Shown here: positions 2,273 through 53,130 of the stretch, in pieces
Layout of the letters: each line of letters begins with the position of its first letter
Position numbering within the stretch: the stretch's first letter is position 1
Source of the DNA: an archaeon
GTDB lineage: Archaea; Iainarchaeota; Iainarchaeia; Iainarchaeales; CSSED10-239
Assembly (NCBI GenBank): GCA_035390665.1
Contig: DAOOUC010000003.1
Span: forward strand, 10,742 to 74,741
DNA length: 64,000 bases
Direction: 5' to 3'
Translations under genes and position numbers: made by a program
Notes under the pieces: model-generated
What the model was told of the DNA's origin: nothing
The model's database searches: none
Seen by the model: the letters and a program-made list of their open reading frames with translations, nothing else

Positions 2273-3769
2273 ATGTCAGAAACCGGTTTTAATAATGCAA
2301 AAAAAGATTTATTATCTTTACTTGAAGCTTCCTTAGCCATACGAACAAAAGATAAATCTAAAAAATATAGTTTGTTATTTAGTGGTGGAATTGATTCTTG
2401 CCTTATAGCAATGATTCTTAAAAAACAGAAAATAAACTTTACTTGTTTTTTTGCTTATGTTAAAGATAACACAGAAGCAAAAGATTTAATTTATGCAAAA
2501 AAAGCAGCAAAAGAACTTAATCTAAAACTTGACATTATTTCTGTAGACAAAAAAGAAATATCTAAAATTGTCCCCGAGATTATAAAAATTATTGATTCTG
2601 ATAATCCAATTAAAGTTGGTGTGGCAATTCCAGGATATTTATCTTGTAAAAAAGCTAAATCTAAAAAGACAGACATTATCTTTTCTGGACTTGGCTCTGA
2701 TGAATTATTTGCAGGATATAGTAGATTTACACTAAAAAATCAAAAAAAAGAAACCAAAAAGTGTCTAGATAATATTTACAAAGATAATCTGTCAAGAGAT
2801 GAAGCAATTGCAAAACATTTTAATCTATATGTAGATTGCCCATATCTTGATAAAAAAATTGTAGATTATTCCTTACAATTAGATTCAAAATTTTTTATTT
2901 CAAAAGTTCAGAATAAAATAATTATTAGAGAAATTGCAAAAGATCTTGGATTATCTAAAGAATTAGCTGAAAGAAAAAAATTAGCTTGCCAATATGGAAG
3001 TAATAGTGACAGAATTCTTGAAAAGCTTGCAAAAGAAAATAAATTTAAAACTAAAACAGAATATCTGTCTTCTTTTTCAAAAGAAAAAATTGGTGCACTT
3101 TACTCTGGAGGTAAAGATTCTAATTTATCTTTATGGCTTGCATTCAAAGAAGGGAAAGAAATTTCTTGTTTAATTTCTTTAATTCCTGAAAATATTGATT
3201 CCTATATGTTTCAAACACCTGATATTAATTTCCTGAAATTACAAGCTCTTGCTTTAGATATTCCACTCCTTATTACAAAAACAAAAGGAGAAAAAGAGAA
3301 AGAACTCTCAGATTTAAAAAATGCAATTAAATTTGCTAAAGAAAAATACAATTTAACCGGGATTGTTGCTGGTGCTCTTTATAGTGTTTATCAAAAAGAT
3401 AGAATTGAAAAGATTTGTAAAGATCTTAATCTAAAATTAATTGCACCACTTTGGCATATGAAAGAAGAAGATGAAATTAAACTACTTTTAAAAAACAAAT
3501 TTAAATTCATTATTTGCAAAATTGCAGCATATGGTTTTTCTGAAAAATTACTTGGAAAAGTTATTGATAATAAAGATTTAGGAGAATTAAAAAGATTAAA
3601 TGAAAAATATAAAAGCAATATTGCAGGAGAAGGCGGAGAATATGAAACCCTTGTTCTTGACTCTCCAATGTTTAAACAAAAAATATCCGTAATTGATCTT
3701 GAAAAAATAATGCAAAATGAGTTTACTGGGAATTTAATTATTAAAAAAGTAAAACTAGAGAAGAAATAG
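2273..3769 (+). CDS. Tandem PP-loop ATP pyrophosphatase: N-terminal asparagine-synthetase-like domain (no glutaminase) fused to a C-terminal diphthine-ammonia ligase (Dph6/MJ0570-like) domain
   Basis: N-half: SGGIDSCLIAM ... FSGLGSDELFAGYSRF (AsnB C-domain pattern). C-half: YSGGKDSNLSLWLA, DSYMFQTP, LIAPLWHM, GEGGEYETLVLDSPMF (Dph6/DUF71 signatures). Confidence 0.7.
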   Translation: MSETGFNNAKKDLLSLLEASLAIRTKDKSKKYSLLFSGGIDSCLIAMILKKQKINFTCFFAYVKDNTEAKDLIYAKKAAKELNLKLDIISVDKKEISKIVPEIIKIIDSDNPIKVGVAIPGYLSCKKAKSKKTDIIFSGLGSDELFAGYSRFTLKNQKKETKKCLDNIYKDNLSRDEAIAKHFNLYVDCPYLDKKIVDYSLQLDSKFFISKVQNKIIIREIAKDLGLSKELAERKKLACQYGSNSDRILEKLAKENKFKTKTEYLSSFSKEKIGALYSGGKDSNLSLWLAFKEGKEISCLISLIPENIDSYMFQTPDINFLKLQALALDIPLLITKTKGEKEKELSDLKNAIKFAKEKYNLTGIVAGALYSVYQKDRIEKICKDLNLKLIAPLWHMKEEDEIKLLLKNKFKFIICKIAAYGFSEKLLGKVIDNKDLGELKRLNEKYKSNIAGEGGEYETLVLDSPMFKQKISVIDLEKIMQNEFTGNLIIKKVKLEKK

Positions 3770-3829: not shown

Positions 3830-4636
3830 ATGCCTGCATTACTAGCACACATGCATTTGGTTAAAGACCTTATAAAGGAAAATCCAAAACTATTTAGTTC
3901 TGTAGATTATAAATATTTAATTCAGGGGGCTACATTTCCGGATATTTATTATATTACTGAATTAAAATCAATTACTAAAAAACCAAACTTCAGTAAATTC
4001 ATACATGAAGCAGATAATGAATATGATTTTGCAAAAACATTATTAAGAAAATCTAAAAATAAACAAGAAAGATTGTTTGCAATTGGATTTTTATCTCATA
4101 TGATATTAGATAAAAATGTGCATAATTATCTTAAGAAAAAAGGAATTTATACTGATATTAAACATATGGTTTCAGAATATTATTTAGAAACAAAATTTCA
4201 CAACAGTAAAATACCATTGCCAAGATTTCCAAGCACATTAATAAAAGAAAGCTTAAAGGACTGCTATCCTAAAGATTATGACACATATAAAAATAAAATA
4301 AAAATATCTATTAGGTCTTTAATATTTTATGAATTTGCAAATACTTTTATAATTAAAAAGATAATTAACGGAAGATATAGAAAAGAAAATAACAAAACTA
4401 GATGGTCTTTATTAAATCTTCCATTTAAACTTGCTAGGCTTTCTAAATATAAAAAAATGGGTTATGATTATACTGCTTTATTAAACCCTGATATCACTAT
4501 AAAAGAAAAATATCTTGAAGATATCTATAAAGAATATCAAAAATCTAAAAAAGAGCTAATAAATACAATAATAGAAGAAGAATTAAATGTAGTAGATTAT
4601 ACAACCCATCAAACAGAAATAAGAGATTTTGTTTAA
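3830..4636 (+). CDS. Hypothetical protein (His-rich motifs AHMHL / LSHMILD, possible metal-dependent hydrolase)
   Basis: ORF only. Weak His motifs. Confidence 0.35.
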   Translation: MPALLAHMHLVKDLIKENPKLFSSVDYKYLIQGATFPDIYYITELKSITKKPNFSKFIHEADNEYDFAKTLLRKSKNKQERLFAIGFLSHMILDKNVHNYLKKKGIYTDIKHMVSEYYLETKFHNSKIPLPRFPSTLIKESLKDCYPKDYDTYKNKIKISIRSLIFYEFANTFIIKKIINGRYRKENNKTRWSLLNLPFKLARLSKYKKMGYDYTALLNPDITIKEKYLEDIYKEYQKSKKELINTIIEEELNVVDYTTHQTEIRDFV

Positions 4637-4649
4637 TCTATAAATTTTA

Positions 4650-4883
4650 TTAATATTTATTAAAAGGCGTACTTGATACAGAATAATCATCTAATTCTGT
4701 GTATTTCATTTGCAATTCTTTTAATTCTTTCTTTAGTTCTTCTATTTGTTTTTTATCTAATTTAGATTCAGTCAATTGTTTTTTTATTTTAGATTGTAAA
4801 TTTAAAATTTCTTTTTTTAATCCTTTAACTGTTCTTACTGCTGGCCTTTTTCTTAAAATTGGTGATTTGTGTATTGTTACCAT
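4650..4883 (-). CDS. Small coiled-coil basic protein
   Basis: 77 aa, heptad-like KE-rich sequence. Abuts the next ORF (4883/4884). Confidence 0.3.
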   Translation of the reverse strand: MVTIHKSPILRKRPAVRTVKGLKKEILNLQSKIKKQLTESKLDKKQIEELKKELKELQMKYTELDDYSVSSTPFNKY

Positions 4884-5234
4884 TTAAATCATATTAATAT
4901 TTATTTTTTGTTCTGTCTTGTTATCTACGTAATTATAATCTCTTGAATGTTCCCCTACTCTTATTTTTATTGATTTTAAACCTGGATTTGACCCAATTGC
5001 AGGATATATAAAAAACTTTATTTCTTTACTTTGATTTGGTTCAAATTCTCCAAGTCTTTTATAATCTGTATTAATGGGTTTAACTTTATCAAAACTTAAA
5101 TCTTCATCTAAAACAAGATCTATACTTAACATTTTCTTTGTTATTCCGTTTGTAAGTTTAATAAATAATTCTAATGGCTCTTTGCTTTTACTATCTAATC
5201 TATAGGGATATGTTCTTGTGCTTATTCCAATCAT
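4884..5234 (-). CDS. Hypothetical protein
   Basis: ORF in an operon-like arrangement with 4650-4883. Confidence 0.35.
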   Translation of the reverse strand: MIGISTRTYPYRLDSKSKEPLELFIKLTNGITKKMLSIDLVLDEDLSFDKVKPINTDYKRLGEFEPNQSKEIKFFIYPAIGSNPGLKSIKIRVGEHSRDYNYVDNKTEQKININMI

Positions 5235-5280
5235 TTTTTATCACCATTTAAATTTATAATAATACAATAAACAAAAGAAA

Positions 5281-5757
5281 TTATAAATCTTTTCTTGCGT
5301 GTTTTGTATTAAGTAAATAACCTTTAATTAATTTAATTCTTTCTAAATATTTATCTTTATTATATAATTTATATGCAAAATCATAACAAGTAAGTAAATT
5401 TTCTAAAGTACTAATATTTACATTTGTATTTCCTAGTATTGTATCTCCATAGTCTTTATTTTTTAAAAGAACATAAGATTGCTTATCAAAAGAGTTATCT
5501 ACCCCAATAAATTCAATTTCTATATTATTTAGATTTAAATCTAAATAATTTTTTCCTTTTTTAGATACATTTATTTTAGGGTCATATATTTTTTTTAACT
5601 TTTTAAAATCTTTATAATTTACAATAAAATCAAGATCTTTTGTTTCATTTATTATTTTTTTAAAATAAAGGACCGTTCCTCCAGTTATAAAATAATCAAT
5701 TTTGTGTCTATTTAATTCTTTGACAATTTCTATTACTGTTGGTTTTATTGATTTCAT
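5281..5757 (-). CDS. Minimal nucleotidyltransferase (Pol-beta-like NTase fold)
   Basis: ITGGTVLY...x9...TKDLDFIV matches the hG[GS]...D.D pattern of the NTase superfamily. Confidence 0.5.
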   Translation of the reverse strand: MKSIKPTVIEIVKELNRHKIDYFITGGTVLYFKKIINETKDLDFIVNYKDFKKLKKIYDPKINVSKKGKNYLDLNLNNIEIEFIGVDNSFDKQSYVLLKNKDYGDTILGNTNVNISTLENLLTCYDFAYKLYNKDKYLERIKLIKGYLLNTKHARKDL

Positions 5758-5763
5758 TTTTTC

Positions 5764-6849
5764 TCATTTATAGGTAGTAGAATATTTCTCTTTGTCATCA
5801 ATTATATCGTTATTTTTCCAATCCTCGACCCAGTCAGAGACATTATATGACTTATAACTCCCATCTGGCATAGAACAAACAACTCTAGCAATTCCTGCAT
5901 TAATAATCATCTTTTTACAAATAAAACAAGGTAAAGAATTTGTAGGGGCTACTATTCCTTGATAGGTTCTTTTTCCAACAATATACATTGTACCTCCAAC
6001 AATTGAAACTCCATCTCTTGCTGCATTAATTATTGCATTCTGCTCAGCATGAACACTTGTACAAAGTTCAAATCTATGACCTGAAGGAATATTTAATTTT
6101 CTTCTAAGACAATAACCTTTTTCGAAACAATCCTTTGTTCCTCTTGGTGCTCCTACATATCCTGTAGATTTTATTACATTGTCTTTAACAATGATTGCTC
6201 CAAAATTAACACATAAACAACTTTCTCTTTTTGATATTTCGTCTGTTATTTTTATAAAATATTCATCCCAAGATGGTTTACTTCTATTCTTTATTTGTAT
6301 TTTTAAAAGTAATTCTTCTATTTGGGGGTTAAGTGCATCAAGTGGACCATCATTATTTATTCTAAACTCTGCAAGTTTTTTACAAGCCTCTAAATTTTGT
6401 GAGTTTGGATCTGTGCTAGTTAATTCTTTTTTCTCAGAAGCCATAAATTCTTCATAACTTGAGATTTGTTCTTTTTCTCTTAATCTTTCTTTTGCGCGTT
6501 TGTATCTTATTTTTGAATCAGCTTCAACTGAGACAAGATTAAAGTTTGGTAATTTCTTTAGTTCTTCTATTTCTCCTTGTGTCCTAATAGATTCAACAAC
6601 AAAGTTTTTTTCAAGACCTTTAATTGTTATTCTATCTACTAGTCTTTTTGCTAAGATGTTTGGACCAAATTTCTGTCTTAATTCATTACCCACTCTTTGA
6701 AGATTTTCTCTTGTAAGTTCAATATTGTTTTTTCTACATTCTTCTCTTATTTCATCTGAGCAAGAATAAACAATAAATCCTTTTGCTTTTAATATTTCAG
6801 ATACTGCTCCTTTTCCGCTTGCCAAAAATCCAGTTATACCAATTATCAT
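5764..6849 (-). CDS. P-loop nucleoside/nucleotide kinase domain fused to dCMP (cytidine/deoxycytidylate) deaminase
   Basis: N-term Walker A IIGITGFLASGKGAVS (dephospho-CoA/deoxynucleoside kinase-like). C-term zinc deaminase motifs HAEQNAI and PCFICKK (H-A-E ... PC-x2-C). Confidence 0.75.
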   Translation of the reverse strand: MIIGITGFLASGKGAVSEILKAKGFIVYSCSDEIREECRKNNIELTRENLQRVGNELRQKFGPNILAKRLVDRITIKGLEKNFVVESIRTQGEIEELKKLPNFNLVSVEADSKIRYKRAKERLREKEQISSYEEFMASEKKELTSTDPNSQNLEACKKLAEFRINNDGPLDALNPQIEELLLKIQIKNRSKPSWDEYFIKITDEISKRESCLCVNFGAIIVKDNVIKSTGYVGAPRGTKDCFEKGYCLRRKLNIPSGHRFELCTSVHAEQNAIINAARDGVSIVGGTMYIVGKRTYQGIVAPTNSLPCFICKKMIINAGIARVVCSMPDGSYKSYNVSDWVEDWKNNDIIDDKEKYSTTYK

Positions 6850-6862
6850 TTTTTCACCTAAT

Positions 6863-7345
6863 TTATTTTCTTAAATATGTTATAAAAGAATAGCCTTCTT
6901 TTTTTTCTTCATTAACTATTGTCCAGGTATTAGTGTTAATTTCTGGAAAGAAGGTATCTCCGTCATATTCTTTATCCAGTTGTGTTATTTCTAATTTATT
7001 TGCAAGCTCTTGTTCCATTGCTTGTCTATAAATACTAGCTCCTCCAATTATATAAACAATATCATCGAGAGTGTGAGCATAATCAATTGCTTCTTTTAAT
7101 GAATTTTTTATTGTTATATCTTCTTCTTCCCAAGAATCATCTTTAAAACAAACAACAATATTTGTTCTTTCTGGTAATGGCTTTATTGGAAGAGAAAAAT
7201 ATGTATTTTTTCCCATAATTACGGGATGCCCTTTTGTTAATCTTTTAAATCTTTTAAAATCCTCAGAAATATGCCAAGGAATTTTATTATCTTTACCAAT
7301 AGCATGATTCTTTGCAATAGCTACAATAATTATTGTTTCTTTCAT
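6863..7345 (-). CDS. folA: Dihydrofolate reductase
   Basis: IIIVAIAKNHAIGKDNKIPWH...DFKRFKRLTKGHPVIMGKNTY, the classical DHFR N-terminal signature. Start abuts the thyA stop. Confidence 0.9.
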   Translation of the reverse strand: MKETIIIVAIAKNHAIGKDNKIPWHISEDFKRFKRLTKGHPVIMGKNTYFSLPIKPLPERTNIVVCFKDDSWEEEDITIKNSLKEAIDYAHTLDDIVYIIGGASIYRQAMEQELANKLEITQLDKEYDGDTFFPEINTNTWTIVNEEKKEGYSFITYLRK

Positions 7346-8212
7346 TTATACCGCGATTTCGAATTTTATTGTTGGTTGTGCTTTATAGTCTATTACTTTT
7401 GTATCTGTGTATTTCCAATCAAAGATAGAAGTAAAGTTTTCTGTTTCTAATTTTGGAAGAGCTGTCGGAGTTCTTGATAATTGTTCTTTTAAGCCATCTA
7501 TGTGATTAACATAAATGTGTGTGTCTCCTAAAAAACCAATTAATTTCCCTTCTTTTAAATTTGCTTCTTTTGCTAGAAGATGAAGAAGTAAACCATAACT
7601 TGCAATATTAAATGGTAGCCCTAGAGCAGAATCAACAGATCTTTGATTCCATAATAGATTTAATTTATCATTAATAACTGTAACTTGAAAACCATAATGA
7701 CAAGGGGGTAAAGCCATGTGTTTGATGTCAAGTGGATTCCATGCAGAAACTATCATCCTTCTGTCTGTTGGGTTTGTTTTAAGAGTATCAACTAATTTTT
7801 TTAATTGATCAACACCATCGCCAGTTGGTGTTTTATCATGTGCTTGATAAGTTTTTCCAAAATTTCTCCATTGATAACCATAGATTGGACCAAGTTCTCT
7901 TTCTTCAAGCATTTTCTTTTTTGTGTTTTCGTCATTTCCATAAGGAATAACATCTGGAGAACACCATTCATCCCATATGTGATTATCTTTTTCTCTTAAC
8001 CAATTTTTATCTGTAATACCTTTTATGAAAAATTCTAATTCTGAAGCAACTAATCTAAATGGAACTTTCTTAGTTGTTAGAAGTGGAAACCCTTCTAACA
8101 TATCATGTTCAAACATACAACCTGCAACAGCAATTGTATCAATTCCTGTTCTATTATGTTTTAGTTCTCCTTTGTCTATAATTAATTTTATAATATCTAG
8201 ATATGCTTTCAT
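7346..8212 (-). CDS. thyA: Thymidylate synthase (ThyA type)
   Basis: RRMIVSAWNP...DIKHMALPPCH active-site cysteine motif. WNQRSVD. Confidence 0.92.
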   Translation of the reverse strand: MKAYLDIIKLIIDKGELKHNRTGIDTIAVAGCMFEHDMLEGFPLLTTKKVPFRLVASELEFFIKGITDKNWLREKDNHIWDEWCSPDVIPYGNDENTKKKMLEERELGPIYGYQWRNFGKTYQAHDKTPTGDGVDQLKKLVDTLKTNPTDRRMIVSAWNPLDIKHMALPPCHYGFQVTVINDKLNLLWNQRSVDSALGLPFNIASYGLLLHLLAKEANLKEGKLIGFLGDTHIYVNHIDGLKEQLSRTPTALPKLETENFTSIFDWKYTDTKVIDYKAQPTIKFEIAV

Positions 8213-8213
8213 T

Positions 8214-8669
8214 TCACTTCACATTTCTCCTTGTATTTACTCTAATTGCTTTTCTTTTCTTATCTTTTTTTTCCTTTATTGCTTTTTGAAAATTAGGTTC
8301 TGTTCTATATATTTCATTAATTAAATCTTCATATGCTTTTCTAATAGTTTCTATCTTTTCTGTTTGTTCTTGAATTCTTCTTTTCAATAATATTTTATCT
8401 GCAGTTTGTATTCCTGCTTTTTCAATTTTAGTCAATAAAGAATTAAATGCTGCCGTTAACATTTTCATTTCTTTTATTCTTAATAGATGTTCGTTTGGAT
8501 TTTCACAAACATAAACTTCTCTTAATTTTTTTAATATCATTTCTGAAATTGAATCAATTTTATGTTCTTGTTCTTTAATATATTGATAATATTTTTTAGA
8601 TTTATTAGATTGTGTATTTGATAAATCCAATCTTTTCTTTGCTTCTTCAAAATCAATTATTTTTGCCAT
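8214..8669 (-). CDS. Hypothetical coiled-coil protein embedded between thyA and glyA
   Basis: 151 aa, K/E-rich, no motif. Separated by 1-8 nt from neighbours. Confidence 0.35.
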   Translation of the reverse strand: MAKIIDFEEAKKRLDLSNTQSNKSKKYYQYIKEQEHKIDSISEMILKKLREVYVCENPNEHLLRIKEMKMLTAAFNSLLTKIEKAGIQTADKILLKRRIQEQTEKIETIRKAYEDLINEIYRTEPNFQKAIKEKKDKKRKAIRVNTRRNVK

Positions 8670-8677
8670 AATACCAC

Positions 8678-9895
8678 TTATATTTTATCTATTGGATAGT
8701 CTTTCAGCATTTCTATTATCTTTAGCTTTATACTTTGCTTTAATTCTTGGTTATCTGGTTCAGAGATTACTTGATTAATATAATCTGCAATTACTCTAAT
8801 TTGTTCTTCTTTAAACCCTCTTGTTGTTATTGCAGGAGTTCCAATCCTTATACCTGAAGTTATAAATGGTTTTTGAGGGTCTTTTGGTATTCCATTTTTG
8901 TTAACAGAAATATTTATTTCTTCTAAGATTTCTTGTGCTTTTTTGCCTGTAATGTTTTTGTTTCTTAAGTCTACAAGTATAAGATGGTTATCAGTTCCAT
9001 CAGTTACAAGTTTAAAACCATAATTTTGAAGTTCTTGTGCTAAAGTTTTAGAGTTTTTTAGAACTTGTTCTTGATAAGTTTTAAACTCTGGTTTTAAGGC
9101 TTCTTCAAAACAAATTGCTTTTCCTGCAATTATGTGTTCTAATGGCCCTCCTTGAAAACCAGGAAAATTATTTTTGTTTATTTTTTCTCCAATTTCGTCA
9201 TTATCTGTTAAGATTAGTCCACCTCTTGGGCCTCTTAAAGTTTTATGAGTGGTTGAAGTAACAATATCTGCATAAGGTAAAGGCGATTGGTGAAGGTTGG
9301 TTGCGACCAAACCAGCAATATGTGCCATGTCTGCCATTAGATATGCATCAACAGAATCTGCAATTTCTCTAAATCTTTTAAAATCAATCTTACGAGGATA
9401 AGCAGAAGCACCACAAACAATCATTTTTGGTTTTATTTCTTTTGAAAGCTTTTGGATTTCATCATAATCAAGATAACCATTTTCATCTGTTCCATAACTA
9501 TAACTTTCAAGAAGTCTACCTGAAAAATTAAGTTTAAAACCATGTGTCAAGTGTCCTCCACTATCAAGAGACATGCCAAGTATTTTATCTCCTTTTTCAA
9601 GTAAAGAAAAATAAGCTATTAAGTTTGCAGAAGAACCAGAGTGTGGTTGAACATTTACATATTTACATTTGAAAAGTTCTTTTGCTTTTTCTCGTGCATA
9701 ATCTTCAATCTCATCAACAACCTCACACCCAGAGTAATATCTTTTTCCAGGATATCCTTCAGCATATTTGTTTGTAAGAACAGAACCACAAGCTTCTCTA
9801 ATCTCTTTAGAACAAATATTTTCAGAAGCAATCATTTCTACAGTTTCTTGTTGTCTAATCTTTTCTTTCTCTATTAGTTCTTTTATTTTTGACAT
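8678..9895 (-). CDS. glyA: Serine hydroxymethyltransferase
   Basis: PLP-lysine region [16 protein letters not shown]. Overall SHMT length and motifs. Confidence 0.92.
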
Positions 9896-9903
9896 AATAA
9901 ATC

Positions 9904-10863
9904 CTATTTAATTATTTCATCTAATATTTTTGACATCTTTGTTTTGATTTTTTCTTTTGAATCATAGATATTAAATCTATAGATTTCTGGAAGATATTTT
10001 GAAGTATGCATTTTACATCCTTCTGTGTAAAGTTTATCAAGCCATTTACCTGCATATCTTTTATTAACAAGTAATTGATAGTCTGAATTTAATTCGTGAT
10101 CATCAAGTATTCTTCCTTCACTTCTTTTGTTCTTTAATTCTAAATATTTTTCTTTCTTCCAAGATTTTGGACCACACACAACAAAGATATGTGTTGGTGG
10201 AAACCTAAAAGCAACTTTGTGACCTGGAAGAGAAAGATATTTTTTTAGTTTTATACCTTTCTGGTTATTTTCTTTATCATAAACTTGATAACAAGCAGAT
10301 TCTTCGCTTCTGCTTCTAATAATTATTCTTTTATTATCTCTTAATATCTTTCTTATTCTATAAAATTCATCAATTCTATATGCTTGATGTACAAGAGCTG
10401 CAGAATATCCATCAATTGTTTCTTCAAAATCATAAGAACTTCTGTTCTGTTCAATCACTCTATTTACTTGGCCAGCGCCTCTTTTTGTTGGTTCTTCCAA
10501 AACCCAAACATCTGCAGAATCTGGATTAATATAAGTAGTTATTTTATTTTTCTTAAAAGAGCCAACTAAAAGGTCTGAATTTTTATTATATCCGGAAAGT
10601 AAAGAATAAATTTCTAATAATAATTTATCTTTTTTTTCTTGTGAAAAAGAATCTGAATTCAAAAAATCTCTTAAAGACATAAAATCTTTATTGTATTCTT
10701 TAAAAATCTCAGCATGAAACAAAAGATCCATTTCTGTTCCTCTAATGTCTCTAATTGTTTTTCCTTTTTCCTTAAAATAATTTATAAAATCATTAATCTG
10801 TGTGCTTGTTCCAGACATATCTGGTCCACAAATTACTATATCAAAGAATTCGGTTGTTGTCAT
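9904..10863 (-). CDS. Thymidylate-kinase-like P-loop protein with lysine-less Walker A
   Basis: [14 protein letters not shown] aligns to the Tmk GxDGSGKST motif with K replaced by [13 protein letters not shown] resembles the Tmk DRY..SSLAYQ region. Extra ~120 aa at the C-terminus. Confidence 0.45.
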
Positions 10864-10938
10864 TTTTATCCCAAATATAATAACTAGTAAAGTGTTTATA
10901 AATTGTTTCTACAAATATTTATGTATATATAAAAAATT

Positions 10939-11760
10939 ATGATTTATATGAATATTTTACTTATTTGTTCAAAAAACGATCTTGCATCTGTTAATTTTTT
11001 TGAAACTCTAACCACAGAAAGCTTTGAATTTACTACATTTTCAAAAAATCTTTGGTTTTTAAACAAAGAAAATAAAATTTATCTAACATTAACAGAAAAA
11101 ATGCATCTCTATCTTGAAGAAAAAGACATTTTAGATATTGAAAAAGAAGCCGATGTAAAATTTGAACAAATAATTTTTCTTTCAAAACATTCAACTCTTT
11201 CAGAAATAAAGCCAAGAACAATCTCTGTTCATTCAATTGGAAATTGGGGAAAAGCAGAGCTTGGTGGAATTGATGAGACTGTTGTAAAAACAGATCCAAT
11301 ATTAATTCGTTATTTGCTTTTGGATTTCTATAATAATAAACCAAAAACTTTGCCATTTGAAATAAAACAAGAAGCAACACATCATGGACCTTTCCTTTCT
11401 AAATCAACAATATTTGTGGAAATTGGCTCAAATGAAAATGCATGGAAAGATAAGGAGGCTTCTATTTTTGTTTGTAAGGAATTAATAAAAATTATTTCGG
11501 ATTATAATAAAATAAAAATTAAACAAGAAACTGATTGGAAAGAAGCAGTTGGCTTTGGTGGCTCTCATTATTGTACAAAATTTAATAGATTAACTTTTGA
11601 CCGAAACAATAAGTTTTGCTTTGGACATGTTATCCCTGATTATGCCATTACACAAATTACAGATAAACAAAAACTTAATCAAATATTAGAACAAGCAAAA
11701 GAAGAAAGTAATTCTTCTATGGTTTTAGATGAAAATTTAAAAGACATTATTTCTTTTTAA
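10939..11760 (+). CDS. dtdA: D-aminoacyl-tRNA deacylase, archaeal type (DtdA). Likely true start at Met 10948
   Basis: NILLICSKNDLASVNF, HSIGNWGKAELGG, EATHHGP, FVEIGSNENAW, GFGGSHYCTK, FGHVIPDYA. All recalled DtdA (tRNA_deacylase family) signatures. Confidence 0.65.
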   Translation: MIYMNILLICSKNDLASVNFFETLTTESFEFTTFSKNLWFLNKENKIYLTLTEKMHLYLEEKDILDIEKEADVKFEQIIFLSKHSTLSEIKPRTISVHSIGNWGKAELGGIDETVVKTDPILIRYLLLDFYNNKPKTLPFEIKQEATHHGPFLSKSTIFVEIGSNENAWKDKEASIFVCKELIKIISDYNKIKIKQETDWKEAVGFGGSHYCTKFNRLTFDRNNKFCFGHVIPDYAITQITDKQKLNQILEQAKEESNSSMVLDENLKDIISF

Positions 11761-12871
11761 TTTCTTTCTTAATTCTCTCTCTAATTTTCTCATCTAAAGC
11801 AAATATTGTTTGAATGTTTGGATTTTTAGAATAGAATGTTTTATCCTCTAATATTTTTGAAAATATTTTAACAAATGAGTCTTTAGGTAAATTATTTTTA
11901 TAAAGCTCTTCAGCACAAACATCATAAACCATTTGGAAAAGAATTGGATAACTGCCACCTTTTTTTATTGATAAATAAGCTAATTTAAGAGTTGCTATTT
12001 CTTCAAAATTTATCTTTTTAATATTTATATTGATATTATCTTCTAATTTGTTATTTTCTTTTATTTGAGAATTGTCAAGATAATATAAATTATATATTGA
12101 TTCTTTATTATTATCTGTATAATTAAAAACAGTACATCCGTTCTTTAGTTGTAATATCAAGTTTATTTTTTCTGTATTTGACTTATAGAAATCAAAATTA
12201 TCTAATTCTAAATTATATAAGTTAGACATTACAATTAAATGTCTAGACAACCACATTTTATTTTTAAAATAAAATATTTTTTTAAATTCAGATAATGTTT
12301 TAGAGGGATTTGTATAATTTGTTAAATTTTCTTTATCTTCCTTTGTATCATAATCTATAAGTATTATTTTATCAATTTCATTTAATTTTTTAGTATTTGA
12401 AAATAATGACATAGATTGAAATTGAGGGGTAATATAATTTAATTCAATTCCTTTGTTTTTTGCTTCATTAATGATTATCTTTCCAGAATATAAAATTGGT
12501 TCAAGATTAAGTAATCCAATGTCTTTATATTCTCCGATAGATGCTAATATTAATTTCACAGAATCAATTCCAGTAAAATCAGAAATTATCAAATCACAGT
12601 CTGTAATTTTTAGGAAAGAAGTATATTGAGAATAATCGTGATAACATTTAATATTAAATTCTAATTCTAATTTTTCTGCCAAATCTTTATTAGGAAAGAA
12701 AATAACAGATGGTTGTAATTCTTGAATTTGCTTTTTAAATAAATCAAATTGTTTTTCATCATTACAAAGTAGTGCTGAAATCTTATATTTTTGATTATGT
12801 CTTTTAAAAAAATCAATAATCTCTTGAGATTTTTTTCTTTGACTTCCTAAAATTAGCATTTTTTTTATCAT
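11747..12871 (-). CDS. Hypothetical protein with distant DXR (IspC)-like layout but degenerate motifs
   Basis: N-term ILGSQRKKS (vs DXR LGSTGSIG). Segment DLIISDFTGIDSVKLILASIGEYKDIGLLNLEPILYSGKII...ITPQFQSM parallels DXR ...IVGAAGL.PTLAAI.AGK.IALANKESLV...LPVDSEHSA, but the catalytic residues are not conserved. Confidence 0.35.
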   Translation of the reverse strand: MIKKMLILGSQRKKSQEIIDFFKRHNQKYKISALLCNDEKQFDLFKKQIQELQPSVIFFPNKDLAEKLELEFNIKCYHDYSQYTSFLKITDCDLIISDFTGIDSVKLILASIGEYKDIGLLNLEPILYSGKIIINEAKNKGIELNYITPQFQSMSLFSNTKKLNEIDKIILIDYDTKEDKENLTNYTNPSKTLSEFKKIFYFKNKMWLSRHLIVMSNLYNLELDNFDFYKSNTEKINLILQLKNGCTVFNYTDNNKESIYNLYYLDNSQIKENNKLEDNININIKKINFEEIATLKLAYLSIKKGGSYPILFQMVYDVCAEELYKNNLPKDSFVKIFSKILEDKTFYSKNPNIQTIFALDEKIRERIKKEIKKK

Positions 12872-31250: not shown

Positions 31251-31919
31251 TTAATTTCGTCTCATTTTTATGTTGATTTCATCTTTACTATTATTTACAA
31301 AAAAAGTATCACATAGTCCTAAGAAAACTCCTGTTTCTAAAACGCCAGGTATGTTTCTTACAGAGTATTCAAAATCATCTAAACTAATATTTTTGTCTAT
31401 TGTAATTCTTGCTAAATAATGTCCTGTTTCAGTTTTAATAAAATTATCGTCTGTATCTTTAACAACTCTTGCAAGACCATAGCTTTGAAGATTTAAGATT
31501 GTTCTTTCCCAAGCAAAAGAACTTATTTCTACATATGCGTCCTTGTCTATTTTTTCTACAAAATCATAATCATTAACAACTACTATTAAATTTAAAGCAG
31601 ATTGAGCAATCATTTTATCTCTTATAAAAGATCTTGTGTCACTTTTTAAAAAATTATTAAAATTATCCGCTTGTGAACAAAACTCTATTGCCACATCTAT
31701 TTCTTTATCACTTAGAGAAATAACAGATTGACCAAGAGAATGAAGTTGAGCCGCTTGTTTTGCAGTGGTTGGTACAAAATAGACTTTTTTTTTATTAATC
31801 AATAATATTTTTATTAATTCATCAACAAACTCATTATCTTTTTCAGAAGTACCAACAGCAACAATTGCTTCATGTTTTATAAACTTCTCAAAAGCCATTG
31901 CAATTTTTGGAATATTCAT
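31251..31919 (-). CDS. rpiA: Ribose-5-phosphate isomerase A
   Basis: VAVGTSEKD (GxGTGST-like), IDVAIEFCSQAD (DGADE-like), PGVLETGVFLGL (PGVVEtGLF). Confidence 0.6.
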   Translation of the reverse strand: MNIPKIAMAFEKFIKHEAIVAVGTSEKDNEFVDELIKILLINKKKVYFVPTTAKQAAQLHSLGQSVISLSDKEIDVAIEFCSQADNFNNFLKSDTRSFIRDKMIAQSALNLIVVVNDYDFVEKIDKDAYVEISSFAWERTILNLQSYGLARVVKDTDDNFIKTETGHYLARITIDKNISLDDFEYSVRNIPGVLETGVFLGLCDTFFVNNSKDEINIKMRRN

Positions 31920-37299: not shown

Positions 37300-40330
<3,031 letters not shown>

Positions 40331-52206: not shown

Positions 52207-53130
52207 TTAATTTATAAAGCTAATTATATTCTTTTTTTCTGTTATTCTTGTAATAATTTCTTTATATATCGGGGCATATGGTACGACTTTAATTTTGTTG
52301 GATATCTTGCTTTTAGGAGATGAAAAGATATATATTTCTTTTATTATTGAATCATTTAATCTTTCCACCGCTCCTTCGCTTAATAATCCATGAGTGGCTA
52401 TGACATATATATTCTTTGCTCCTTTTAATGCCAAGAAATTTGAAAATCTAACAATTAATTCTCCGCTTGCTATTCTATTCCCAACTAATAAAATATCCTT
52501 CTCGTTAACAGATTTATTTATTTCAAATCCATTATCATTATTTTCATCAATTTTTGTGGTGTATACAAAATCACAACCAATTACTTTTGATATATCAACG
52601 GCTCTATCTCGCAATTCATAATCTAATGTTGTAACTACTAAATTTTTATTAGATTTAAATTTTTGTTCCAAAATATATGAAAATACTTTCTTTATATTAA
52701 TATTATATACTGGAATTTTAAATGCATTAATCAATTGAGGAGAATAAATATCAAAAGTATAAATTGATGTTACTCCTGCTATTTGAAATTGTCTAACAAT
52801 TAAATTAAAATTAATTTTATTTACCTGATCATCTAAAATTCTAGTATAGGGCAAATACGGTAAAATCAAATGTACTCCTCGTGCTCCATTTTTTATTAAA
52901 GTGTCAGATATCAAATAAATTTCCATAAGTGAATCATTTACTGGCGTAGTAATATTATATATCAAGAAAGCATCTTTATTCTGTACATGGCTTTTTATAT
53001 CCACTAATGTTTCAGAATCATTTATTTTTTTAACATCCATGTGCCCTAATAAAATGTTGGTTTCAGAAGAAATGGTATTTGCCAAAGATAAGTCTTTATT
53101 TGGCGCAAATATTATATATTCTTCATTCAT
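52207..53130 (-). CDS. prs: Ribose-phosphate pyrophosphokinase (PRPP synthetase)
   Basis: NDSETLVDIKSHVQNKDAFLIYNITTPVNDSLMEIYLISDTLIKNGARGVHLILPYLPYTRILD parallels Prs ...DGEI.V.I.ESVRGKDVFIIQST.PVND.LMELL...DA.KRASA.RITAVIPYFGYARQD. Confidence 0.7.
   Translation of the reverse strand: MNEEYIIFAPNKDLSLANTISSETNILLGHMDVKKINDSETLVDIKSHVQNKDAFLIYNITTPVNDSLMEIYLISDTLIKNGARGVHLILPYLPYTRILDDQVNKINFNLIVRQFQIAGVTSIYTFDIYSPQLINAFKIPVYNINIKKVFSYILEQKFKSNKNLVVTTLDYELRDRAVDISKVIGCDFVYTTKIDENNDNGFEINKSVNEKDILLVGNRIASGELIVRFSNFLALKGAKNIYVIATHGLLSEGAVERLNDSIIKEIYIFSSPKSKISNKIKVVPYAPIYKEIITRITEKKNIISFIN

Follow-up and report, generated by a model that had tools for sequence, protein, structure and literature searches.

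Organisation of the gene cluster

The window analysed here, a stretch of 64,000 nucleotides with a GC content of about 27%, is archaeal according to its LSU rRNA, and the host is a tiny-genome archaeon of the DPANN type. A total of six open reading frames were found on the minus strand between positions 5764 and 10863, exactly where an earlier note on this DNA had placed a contiguous thymidylate cluster, and its ThyA, DHFR, SHMT and deaminase domain score above the curated thresholds of Pfam. The order of transcription is TmkL, SHMT, a 151-aa protein, ThyA, DHFR and a fusion of a P-loop kinase with a dCMP deaminase (KinDcd).

10864-10938, no strand assigned: candidate promoter, with a TATA-like TTTATAAA at 10902-10895 on the minus strand, about 36 nt 5' of the TmkL ATG
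9904-10863, minus strand: TmkL, 319 aa, divergent thymidylate-kinase homologue, first gene of the cluster and proposed dTMP kinase
8678-9895, minus strand: glyA, serine hydroxymethyltransferase (SHMT), 405 aa
8214-8669, minus strand: cc151, 151 aa, Lys/Glu-rich, lineage-specific, with a basic C-terminal tail
7346-8212, minus strand: thyA, thymidylate synthase (TS) of the bacterial/eukaryotic ThyA type, 288 aa
6863-7345, minus strand: folA, dihydrofolate reductase (DHFR), 160 aa
5764-6849, minus strand: KinDcd, 361-aa fusion of P-loop NMP-kinase-like and zinc dCMP-deaminase domains
5281-5757, minus strand: orf158, weak LicD/nucleotidyltransferase-like match
4884-5234, minus strand: orf116, weak family matches at most
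4650-4883, minus strand: orf77, weak family matches at most

Along the order of transcription the intergenic gaps are 8, 8, 1, 0 and 13 bp; the genes had been described as contiguous or overlapping, and they are contiguous with no overlaps. Ribosome-binding sites of the GGTGA/GGAG type precede several internal genes, and upstream of the cluster lies one divergent region of 75 bp (10864-10938) between TmkL and a plus-strand D-aminoacyl-tRNA deacylase gene, which from its sequence may contain the promoter. Co-transcription of the six genes is plausible given the gaps of 0-13 bp, the ribosome-binding sites and the single divergent upstream region. Promoters within coding sequences are also conceivable in an archaeon. 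No terminator-like sites were found anywhere in 4300-11300 by a sigma-70 and terminator scan, which is uninformative for an archaeon. The co-directional run continues downstream as far as 4650 through three more ORFs, which are separated by 6, 46 and 0 bp and may be part of the same transcript. The three ORFs have no evident tie to nucleotide metabolism; orf116 and orf158 were also observed downstream of Dcd in three other loci (L002, L004 and L006). The RpiA (31251-31919) and PRPP synthetase (52207-53130) genes previously reported elsewhere in the window were both located.

Thymidylate synthase and folate enzymes

The thyA product matches Pfam Thymidylat_synt with 322.7 bits, above the curated threshold, contains the catalytic PCH motif and scores 299 bits with TIGR03284 (cutoff 108) but 45 bits with TIGR03283, the methanogen-type model. 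It is 57-69% identical to ThyA of five Pacearchaeota, Woesearchaeota, unclassified-archaeon and CPR loci (L019, L020, L031, L042 and L054); a more distant ThyA, with 32-39% identity, is encoded in other loci. The start of folA abuts the thyA stop with a gap of 0 bp, and its product is above the curated threshold of Pfam DHFR_1 with 164.9 bits. The glyA product matches Pfam SHMT with 544.4 bits and NCBIfam NF000586 with 621 bits (cutoff 335), and the SHMT lysine motif is found in its translation. No family was found in Pfam or NCBIfam for cc151, for which only six homologues, all 66-100% identical, occur among 5.8 billion proteins. They are always positioned between the SHMT and TS genes, and dN/dS values of 0.31-0.35 were obtained against those of L001 and L003.

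A thymidylate kinase homologue lacking the Walker-A lysine

TmkL has no matches in Pfam, PHROG or PADLOC and passes none of the curated Tmk models of Pfam and NCBIfam, as the TIGR00041 score of 18.5 bits (E=1.3e-3) is below the cutoff of 83.25; a search of PDB sequences with the single TmkL sequence likewise gave no match. Its AF2 model (pLDDT 91.8, pTM 0.90), on the other hand, places it among the thymidylate kinases, which make up all of the best 50 Foldseek matches in the PDB with 4tmk as the first (E=2e-6). The named viral matches in BFVD are dTMP kinases ranked above deoxynucleoside kinases, and no structure match to the latter is better than E of about 1e-3. A profile of the TmkL family retrieved about thirty proteins of 240-300 aa from 1.8 billion (E 1e-12 to 1e-4). 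All ten that were sampled pass the PF02223 gathering score, and tblastn with these intermediates matches the TmkL gene of the window directly at 1e-8. The Tmk-like call of the earlier note, which had itself named lack of profile support as one of the points on which it would fall, is thus without such support from Pfam and TIGR00041 and is upheld by structure, by transitive homology to PF02223 and by gene neighbourhood. On these three grounds we assign TmkL to the Tmk superfamily as a thymidylate-kinase homologue.

TmkL shares with the Tmk proteins (PF02223, TIGR00041; E. coli 4TMK) the fold, with TM-scores of 0.6-0.76 normalised to the target, and a motif order of P-loop, EP, dTMP-binding Arg, xR followed by YQ, and Arg-rich LID; it also adjoins thymidylate synthase, which fits the next step of the pathway. 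Ten positions (G13, G18, E124, P125, R135, R163, R185, Q193, R247 and R251) are invariant together with E. coli Tmk in our alignment A3, where E124-P125 represents the EP motif, R163 and R185 (the DRx arginine) are dTMP-binding, and R247 and R251 belong to the LID. TmkL differs in its length of about 320 aa compared with about 210, in an identity of just 10-13%, and in scoring below all curated thresholds. Its helix 1 is followed by some 80 inserted residues (roughly aa 37-118), and it has several extra invariant arginines (R128, R169, R171, R175 and R183). Four positions before R163, an invariant histidine (His159) replaces the aromatic residue that the intermediate proteins have in common with E. 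coli Tmk, which counts against a dTMP kinase; in E. coli Tmk this residue is a Phe that stacks on thymine. The Walker-A lysine is replaced by threonine (SGT[ST]TQ) in 133 of 135 relatives, although one natural member (P0226) carries Lys at this position. P-loop kinases normally need this lysine for phosphoryl transfer, and since TmkL lacks it, its kinase activity is something that we infer. TmkL is likely a thymidylate kinase of an undescribed family without the normally essential lysine. A second Tmk-like gene was found neither in the window nor in the retrieved flanks, which covered about 20 kb of each genome.

The kinase-deaminase fusion

KinDcd consists of an N-terminal P-loop NMP-kinase-like domain (about aa 1-187, nt 6289-6849) and a C-terminal zinc dCMP-deaminase domain (about aa 190-345, nt 5815-6282), with Pfam matches to dCMP_cyt_deam_1 (58.8 bits, above the curated threshold), AAA_18 (39.4 bits) and AAA_17. 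PDB sequence matches were obtained to SSO1041/UPF0200 over aa 2-144 and to the S. mutans dCMP deaminase over aa 191-324, and Foldseek returned 3lw7 with a target-normalised TM-score of 0.80-0.85 as well as 2hvw. The invariant residues among 36 homologues are G12-K13, R47, R58, R89, E93, R122, H267-A-E269 and P307-C308..C311, and identity in close relatives is about 75%. The nearest relative of the kinase domain in both solved structure and sequence is the 'adenylate kinase-related protein' UPF0200/SSO1041 (PDB 3H0K, 3LW7) with 25-27% identity and target-normalised TM-scores of 0.80-0.86, an uncharacterised archaeal protein that stands alone whereas the KinDcd domain is fused to a deaminase. 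This domain also matches phage dNMP kinases (PHROG 139, 1.2e-13), and it scores 76 bits with NCBIfam PRK08356 (cutoff 189). The phosphorylation of deoxycytidine implied by the earlier note is not supported by these matches, and the domain may just as well act on dNMPs or have a regulatory role.

The fusion has the architecture of the anti-phage dCTP deaminases, a point that the earlier note had missed. KinDcd shares with DcdV (NF041025, PADLOC dCTPase) the N-terminal P-loop kinase, the C-terminal zinc cytidine/dCMP deaminase and a significant full-length similarity (PADLOC dCTPase, 6.2e-47 over aa 1-324). It differs in being about 200 residues shorter (361 aa against about 576), in scoring far below the curated cutoff, and in its location within a thymidylate operon and its stable inheritance in a lineage, with neither an upstream antitoxin RNA nor defence neighbours.

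Conservation of the gene neighbourhood

A total of 56 GTDB loci with TmkL, from DPANN archaea and CPR bacteria, were compared. L006 has the identical gene order, and L001 and L003 retain part of it, up to their contig ends. Independent assemblies of six metagenome samples also yielded the identical cluster; the arrangement is therefore not a chance juxtaposition. In 28 of the 56 loci, and in 20 of the 32 whose flanks both extend for 3 kb or more, TmkL has a TS gene within 5 kb; this gene is directly upstream on the same strand in 20 loci. The TS is ThyA in thirteen loci and ThyX in fifteen, with no locus having both, and DHFR accompanies ThyA in eight loci but ThyX in only one. ThyX occupies the operon position of ThyA and DHFR in L002 and L004, a classic non-orthologous displacement. 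Other neighbours of TmkL are Dcd (19 loci), thioredoxin (10), dUTPase (8) and RNR (6), Dcd occurring in several loci (e.g., L007, L017, L022 and L032) as a stand-alone match of about 180 aa without the kinase part. The widespread core common to DPANN and CPR thus consists of a TS, either ThyA with DHFR or ThyX, and of TmkL after it; Dcd, dUTPase, thioredoxin and RNR are often found close by. Clusters of nucleotide-precursor genes are known from thyA-folA pairs, phage T4 frd-td and dCMP deaminase-ThyA-DHFR groupings. The present cluster resembles the pairs in its adjacent, co-oriented TS and DHFR, where the product of one feeds the other, and differs by adding Dcd, SHMT and the kinase of the next step and by the in situ exchange of ThyA and DHFR for ThyX in sister genomes. 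A linkage more complete than usual had been claimed; with SHMT included, it occurs in no more than 5 of 56 loci, those of the closest relatives of the window, which alone also link cc151, and SHMT joined the module only in the lineage of the window.

Alternative explanations

The absence of the lysine raises the possibility that TmkL is a nucleotide-binding pseudokinase, a regulator or an enzyme of different chemistry, with dTMP converted to dTDP by the KinDcd kinase domain or an unlinked tmk. We consider this unlikely. In its favour, the threonine occupies nearly all the P-loops, and the KinDcd kinase domain, which keeps G12-K13, R47, R58, R89, R115, R118 and R122, resembles phage dNMP kinases and NMP kinases. 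Yet TmkL has kept every other substrate and LID arginine of Tmk as an invariant residue, the family is more than 50% identical between members from two domains of life, as is typical for enzymes, P0226 has the lysine, and several loci, among them the four listed above, combine TmkL with a short Dcd that has no kinase part. It is rather improbable that TmkL is instead a deoxynucleoside kinase (dNK), a salvage entry that would turn scavenged nucleosides into dCMP, dUMP or dTMP. The dNK family has the same fold as Tmk and likewise contains the EP and xRS motifs, two of the PF02223 intermediates also match Pfam dNK (about 1e-6 to 1e-3), and a salvage lifestyle is plausible for DPANN, but TmkL itself has no Pfam dNK match, Thymidylate_kin is the best-scoring family for all ten retrieved relatives, and the structural ranking described above favours thymidylate kinases throughout.

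Two further explanations appear very improbable. KinDcd could be a nucleotide-depletion defence protein of the DcdV type that lies beside the thymidylate genes by chance, as its two-domain architecture and PADLOC match would allow; antiphage_deaminase (NF041025) is also its best NCBIfam match, and both domains are required for defence in the characterised proteins (Tal et al., Hsueh et al. preprints). That match, however, reaches 99 bits against a cutoff of 400, the protein is 361 aa against 576 aa, its position 13 bp 3' of folA leaves no room for a DifV-like antitoxin RNA, PADLOC matched no other defence gene in the cluster, and the gene is kept beside TS, TmkL or dUTPase in 19 of 56 DPANN and CPR loci and is not scattered in defence islands. 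Its operon embedding, retention in close relatives, length and sub-cutoff antiphage score point to a housekeeping context. The six genes might also be separately transcribed neighbours without a functional module, given the high gene density of DPANN genomes and the close spacing of many unrelated genes in the window. Against this, a single pathway accounts for five of the six genes, the genes are separated by 0-13 bp and keep their order in relatives, and the linkage of TS with TmkL is found in two domains of life and persists where ThyX has replaced ThyA and DHFR.

Proposed function

The cluster is probably a housekeeping operon through which a DPANN-type archaeon obtains its thymidine nucleotides, with TmkL making dTDP. 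The enzyme assignments and pathway logic of the earlier note, from dCMP through dUMP to dTMP with recycling of DHF through THF to CH2-THF, hold. The deaminase domain of KinDcd would convert dCMP, and possibly dCTP, to the dUMP that ThyA would methylate to dTMP with 5,10-methylene-THF; the released DHF would be reduced to THF by DHFR and reloaded from serine by SHMT. TmkL would then phosphorylate dTMP to dTDP, the only step of the neighbourhood for which there is no other candidate gene. The role of the Walker-A lysine would presumably be taken by another basic residue. One candidate is R128, which follows the EEP motif together with K/R127 and is invariant in, and specific to, the family; another is R41, which is part of the lineage-specific insertion. 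The kinase domain of KinDcd may phosphorylate (d)NMPs, or it may sense nucleotides and so regulate the deaminase. The cluster as a whole would thus represent ordinary metabolism, and the part worth following up is the kinase family that lacks the lysine.

Organization of the cluster

The six minus-strand genes at positions 5764-10863 probably form a housekeeping operon that supplies dTMP and dTDP and recycles folate, with a divergent thymidylate kinase (TmkL) lacking the Walker-A lysine as its first gene product. Their coordinates, as proposed in the earlier note, were reproduced exactly by our ORF listing.

Genes of the cluster in order of transcription, from the ORF listing
10863-9904, minus strand, TmkL
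9895-8678, minus strand, SHMT
8669-8214, minus strand, 151-aa ORF (cc151)
8212-7346, minus strand, ThyA
7345-6863, minus strand, DHFR
6849-5764, minus strand, KinDcd, a 361-aa kinase-deaminase fusion

From TmkL to KinDcd, the genes are separated by gaps of 8, 8, 1, 0 and 13 bp, several of the internal starts follow GGTGA/GGAG-like motifs, and the sole sizeable non-coding stretch upstream of the cluster is a 75-bp divergent region (10864-10938). Taken together, these features make co-transcription of the cluster plausible. The divergent region contains a candidate TATA-like element, TTTATAAA, located about 36 nt upstream of the TmkL start codon. An intrinsic-terminator scan found no terminator-like site inside the co-directional run and a sigma-70 scan found fewer promoter-like sites than in shuffled sequences, both scans being of bacterial type and not meaningful for an archaeon. 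The same gene order was observed, together with a protein 100% identical to cc151, in contigs from six independent metagenome samples.

Three further co-directional ORFs follow KinDcd down to position 4650 on the minus strand, with gaps of 6, 46 and 0 bp. The ORFs in this stretch (4650-5757, minus strand) are 158, 116 and 77 aa long, the first with a weak match of LicD/nucleotidyltransferase type and the last a predicted coiled coil; the 116-aa and 158-aa ORFs were found again downstream of the deaminase gene in relatives.

The GC content is about 27% across the window and the cluster shows no compositional break. The nearest public loci belong to unclassified MAGs named 'archaeon', to Pacearchaeota, Woesearchaeota and Nanoarchaeota, and to Ca. 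Forterrea multitransposorum, whose genome is complete; the source organism is therefore of DPANN type. A complete archaeal-type LSU rRNA gene at 37334-40314 (minus strand) and a gene for an archaeal D-aminoacyl-tRNA deacylase mark the window as archaeal. As SSU and 5S rRNA genes were not detected anywhere in the 64 kb, the rRNA genes appear to be unlinked. RpiA and PRPP synthetase, reported earlier from elsewhere in the window, are both present. In the wider reading of the earlier note, the organism would lack de novo nucleotide synthesis and the cluster might be a self-contained module fed by scavenged deoxycytidine.

Two other proteins of the window were also recorded. A 498-aa protein encoded at 2273-3769 (plus strand) has two domains, an Asn_synthase-type PP-loop and a diphthine-ammonia ligase domain (Diphthami_syn_2). 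At 11747-12871 (minus strand) a 374-aa DXP-reductoisomerase-like protein is encoded in this archaeon; archaea normally use the mevalonate route. Its N-terminal NADPH domain lies above the Pfam threshold (37 bits), its C-terminal domain lies below the cutoff (25 bits), its central catalytic domain was not detected, and the NCBIfam DXR model gives 73 bits against a cutoff of 461. The gene adjoins DTD2 and TmkL, an arrangement kept in the related loci L001-L006.

Thymidylate synthesis and folate recycling

The earlier calls of ThyA, DHFR and SHMT stand, with curated thresholds passed and catalytic signatures visible in the translations. ThyA scores 322.7 bits with PF00303, above the Pfam threshold, and 299 bits with TIGR03284 (cutoff 108), whereas its methanogen-type score is 45 bits; by these profiles it is assigned to the bacterial/eukaryotic and not to the methanogen type. 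Its translation carries 'LPPCHYGFQ', with the catalytic Cys in the PCH motif. DHFR matches PF00186 above threshold with 164.9 bits, residues 5-150 aligning to profile positions 3-143 of 159. SHMT reaches 544 bits with PF00464 and 621 bits with NF000586 (cutoff 335), and its translation carries the PLP-lysine motif.

Only six homologues of cc151 were found in 5.8 billion proteins, all of them from the same lineage and all encoded between SHMT and the thymidylate synthase (TS) gene. Its N-terminus is conserved, its tail is basic, and its dN/dS against the nearest relatives is about 0.3. We regard cc151 as a genuine small protein specific to this lineage.

The kinase-deaminase fusion

KinDcd consists of a P-loop NMP-kinase-like domain (residues 1 to about 187; Pfam AAA_18/AAA_17) and a zinc dCMP-deaminase domain (residues about 190-345; PF00383, 58.8 bits, cutoff 25). 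The N-terminal domain matches SSO1041/UPF0200 among PDB sequences (E=2.9e-11), 3lw7/3h0k in Foldseek (TM-score 0.80-0.86 normalised to the target) and PHROG 139 'dNMP kinase' (1.2e-13). With NCBIfam PRK08356 (cutoff 189) it scores 76 bits, which makes it a relative of UPF0200 rather than a curated member. The deaminase domain matches the dCMP deaminases of S. mutans, T4, human and PBCV-1 in both sequence and fold (2hvw, 1vq2, 7fh4), and dCMP would be its substrate, with dCTP as the alternative.

Among 36 KinDcd homologues, the Walker-A residues G12-K13 and R47, R58, R89, E93 and R122 are invariant, with R115/R118 nearly so, as are the zinc and catalytic motifs H-A-E (H267, E269) and P-C-x-x-C (P307, C308, C311). 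Both domains look functional from this conservation of their motifs. The kinase domain may phosphorylate or sense a ligand, and the deoxycytidine kinase suggested in the earlier note is one of several options. Similar kinase-dCMP-deaminase fusions are common in DPANN and CPR, with 706 matches at E<=1e-5.

Gene neighbourhood of TmkL

ORFs within 5 kb on each side of TmkL were collected from 56 GTDB loci encoding this protein and clustered without labels, after which the largest clusters were annotated.

Most frequent annotated protein clusters within 5 kb of TmkL, by number of loci
dCMP deaminase, 19/56
ThyX, 15/56
ThyA, 13/56
PepSY-domain protein, 12/56
Thioredoxin, 10/56
DHFR, 9/56
dUTPase, 8/56
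Ribonucleotide reductase, 6/56

A TS gene was found in half of the neighbourhoods (28/56), either ThyA or ThyX and never both, and in 20 of the 32 loci having at least 3 kb on both flanks. It lies directly upstream of TmkL on the same strand in 20 loci, CPR contigs included. DHFR accompanies ThyA in eight loci and ThyX once. The linkage to TS whatever its type, in a deoxynucleotide neighbourhood that lacks only the step from dTMP to dTDP, speaks most strongly for dTMP as the substrate of TmkL. Linkage to SHMT (five loci) and cc151 (four loci) occurs in the closest relatives only, and the inclusion of SHMT is a local elaboration.

The clade of the window keeps the order TmkL-SHMT-(cc151)-TS-...-Dcd, where Dcd is the deaminase. 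Two related loci, L002 (10001-15290) and L004 (2066-7439), have a long ThyX where the window (5764-10863) and L006 have ThyA and DHFR, while the frame TmkL-SHMT-...-Dcd is kept. This exchange within the same operon slot is an in-situ non-orthologous displacement of the thymidylate synthase, and the sister genomes offer a neat natural example of the process.

A different block was observed in L007, L008, L027, L032 and L036, in which thioredoxin, TS, TmkL, Dcd, a 96-aa ORF, a CobA/BtuR-like ATP:corrinoid adenosyltransferase and ribonucleotide reductase follow one another. From this arrangement, the ribonucleotide reductase would be of the B12-dependent type (class II), with the gene for activation of its cofactor lying in the same deoxynucleotide neighbourhood.

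TmkL as a member of the thymidylate kinase superfamily

TmkL has no match in Pfam (E<=0.01), PHROG or PADLOC, and its score with TIGR00041 is 18.5 bits (E=1.3e-3) against a cutoff of 83.25. The single sequence found nothing among PDB sequences with phmmer at E<=10, and the profile of the TmkL family alignment reached Tmk chains there at E=0.16 only. The family is compact; its proteins are about 320 aa long and share 50-60% identity between DPANN archaea and members of the CPR bacteria (Nomura-, Buchanan-, Uhr- and Magasanikbacteria). Most of them are named 'hypothetical', and IMG calls a few 'thymidylate kinase'. From 1.84 billion representative proteins the profile retrieved no more than 26 clusters with E<=1e-30. 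About thirty further proteins, 240-300 aa in length, were reached in the same search with E-values from 1e-12 to 1e-4. The ten that were sampled all pass the PF02223 (Thymidylate_kin) gathering score, and these intermediates match the TmkL gene of the window directly at about 1e-8 (tblastn). By this route the homology of TmkL is traceable in sequence to bona fide PF02223 members.

An AlphaFold (AF2) model built from 36 sequences has a pLDDT of 91.8 and a pTM of 0.90, and its best 50 PDB matches are all thymidylate kinases (E 2e-6 to 2e-4, TMt 0.56-0.76); the predicted three-dimensional fold is that of Tmk. The Tmk-like call of the earlier note is thus sustained by the modelled fold, the PF02223 intermediates and the neighbourhood, whereas the curated profiles fail to recognize the protein.

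Direct alignment to E. coli Tmk was less informative, as hhalign of the TmkL profile against this single sequence aligned the P-loop only, with a probability of 0.2. Adding E. coli Tmk to the family alignment with MAFFT --add placed a TmkL segment on Tmk beta4/LID, with 180 residues at the C-terminus left out of the alignment; this register was rejected on the basis of the TIGR00041 match (residues 106-210 to profile positions 22-120) and the alignment through the PF02223 intermediates. No TmkL was found in IMG/VR, which leaves a viral origin or vehicle unsupported. No second, canonical Tmk was found in the window or in the fetched flanks, which represent a small fraction of each genome.

Conserved residues and the missing Walker-A lysine

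In the alignment of TmkL, the PF02223 intermediates and E. coli Tmk, residues G13, G18, E124-P125 (Tmk 'REP'), R135, R163, R185 (the Arg of the DRx motif) and Q193 are invariant, as are the LID arginines R247 and R251. The dTMP-site and LID features of Tmk (EP motif, helix 3 Arg, DRx Arg, YQ and LID arginines) are all found in TmkL. Several positions differ from E. coli Tmk. The Asp of the DRx motif is Ser in TmkL, and His159, invariant in TmkL and located four positions before R163, falls at a site that is aromatic in both E. coli Tmk and the intermediates. TmkL also has an insertion of about 80 residues after helix 1 and extra invariant arginines at R128, R169, R171, R175 and R183.

A further difference lies in the Walker-A motif GxxxxGK[ST], where the catalytic Lys is Thr in TmkL. 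Across the family this position is Thr in 133 of 135 proteins, with one Lys and one Ser. The lysine is restored (GPDISGKTSQ) in the sole such member found, the nanoarchaeotal protein P0226/P0318 (L049, 10001-10921), which is either a natural revertant or the ancestral state and lends itself to mutational comparison. In locus L058 (808-1581), from one metagenome assembly of the same organism, TmkL was called as only 257 aa (P0125; 96% identical across 79% of the query), and a 194-bp gap separates it from SHMT. A frameshift, a truncation or an assembly variant may account for this short form.

Interpretation of the cluster

The threonine in place of the Walker-A lysine leads to the main rival to a kinase role for TmkL, namely that TmkL has no catalytic kinase activity and that the fused NMP-kinase-like domain of KinDcd, with its invariant G12-K13, does the phosphorylation. 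We consider this unlikely beside the retained dTMP-site and LID residues. Less probable still is that TmkL is a deoxynucleoside kinase; in the viral structure library (BFVD) dTMP kinases lead the TmkL matches and deoxynucleoside kinases trail. That the genes are merely adjacent is very improbable beside their tight spacing and the recurrence of TS next to TmkL.

A role of KinDcd as a defence enzyme is equally improbable. KinDcd has in common with the anti-phage dCTP deaminase (DcdV) the two-domain architecture of P-loop kinase and cytidine deaminase, two preprints on anti-phage dCTP deaminases report that defence needs both domains, and the PADLOC dCTPase model matches KinDcd at 6.2e-47 over residues 1-324, covering model positions 155-484 of 630 only. 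On the other hand, KinDcd scores 99 bits with the anti-phage deaminase equivalog NF041025 against a curated cutoff of 400, and has 361 aa compared to 576 aa for the anti-phage enzyme. A gap of 13 bp separates its gene from folA, too little to hold an upstream inhibitory sRNA like the DifV RNA of DcdV. Its setting is a nucleotide operon and not a defence island or mobile element with sparse distribution. Homologues of Dcd near TmkL are mostly beside TS or dUTPase genes, and no other PADLOC match was found in the cluster. The defence role was set aside on the score, the length, the 13-bp gap and the nucleotide-gene context, and KinDcd is read as a housekeeping relative of the anti-phage dCTP deaminases.

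Within the preferred reading of a housekeeping operon headed by TmkL, we propose more tentatively that TmkL represents a 'with-no-lysine' Tmk family, the sole dTMP kinase of many DPANN archaea and CPR bacteria, which would have been exchanged between the domains together with a TS gene. The role of the otherwise universal Walker-A lysine might be taken by a relocated basic residue, with R128/K127 or a residue of the lineage-specific, roughly 80-residue insertion (R41) as candidates; alternatively, the phosphate might come from a donor that is not ATP.

Taken by itself, the operon represents textbook metabolism of pyrimidines and folate, and nucleotide operons centred on thyA-folA are of an already known kind. 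The new part is a cross-domain, TS-linked Tmk-fold family without the Walker-A lysine, which was not found in profile libraries or in the searchable literature, where we found no description of a CPR/DPANN thymidylate kinase variant nor of UPF0200/SSO1041 function. The housekeeping counterpart of a defence architecture, KinDcd, is also new.

For annotation, the cluster is of value in indicating that this ultra-small archaeon would make its own dTMP through ThyA, DHFR and SHMT and not by import of thymidine nucleotides. The housekeeping fusions of DPANN and CPR match anti-phage models at about 1e-47, so censuses of defence systems may over-call them, and these fusions may be metabolic relatives that gave rise to the defence enzymes. 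The TmkL family, tightly conserved with more than 50% identity between DPANN and CPR, without a Pfam or NCBIfam model and linked to ThyA or ThyX, stands out as a clean candidate for the 'missing' thymidylate kinase of DPANN and CPR and is of interest for P-loop enzymology. If TmkL is indeed a lysine-less sole Tmk, reconstructions that score these organisms as tmk-less would be wrong, and P-loop kinase catalysis would gain one more solution.
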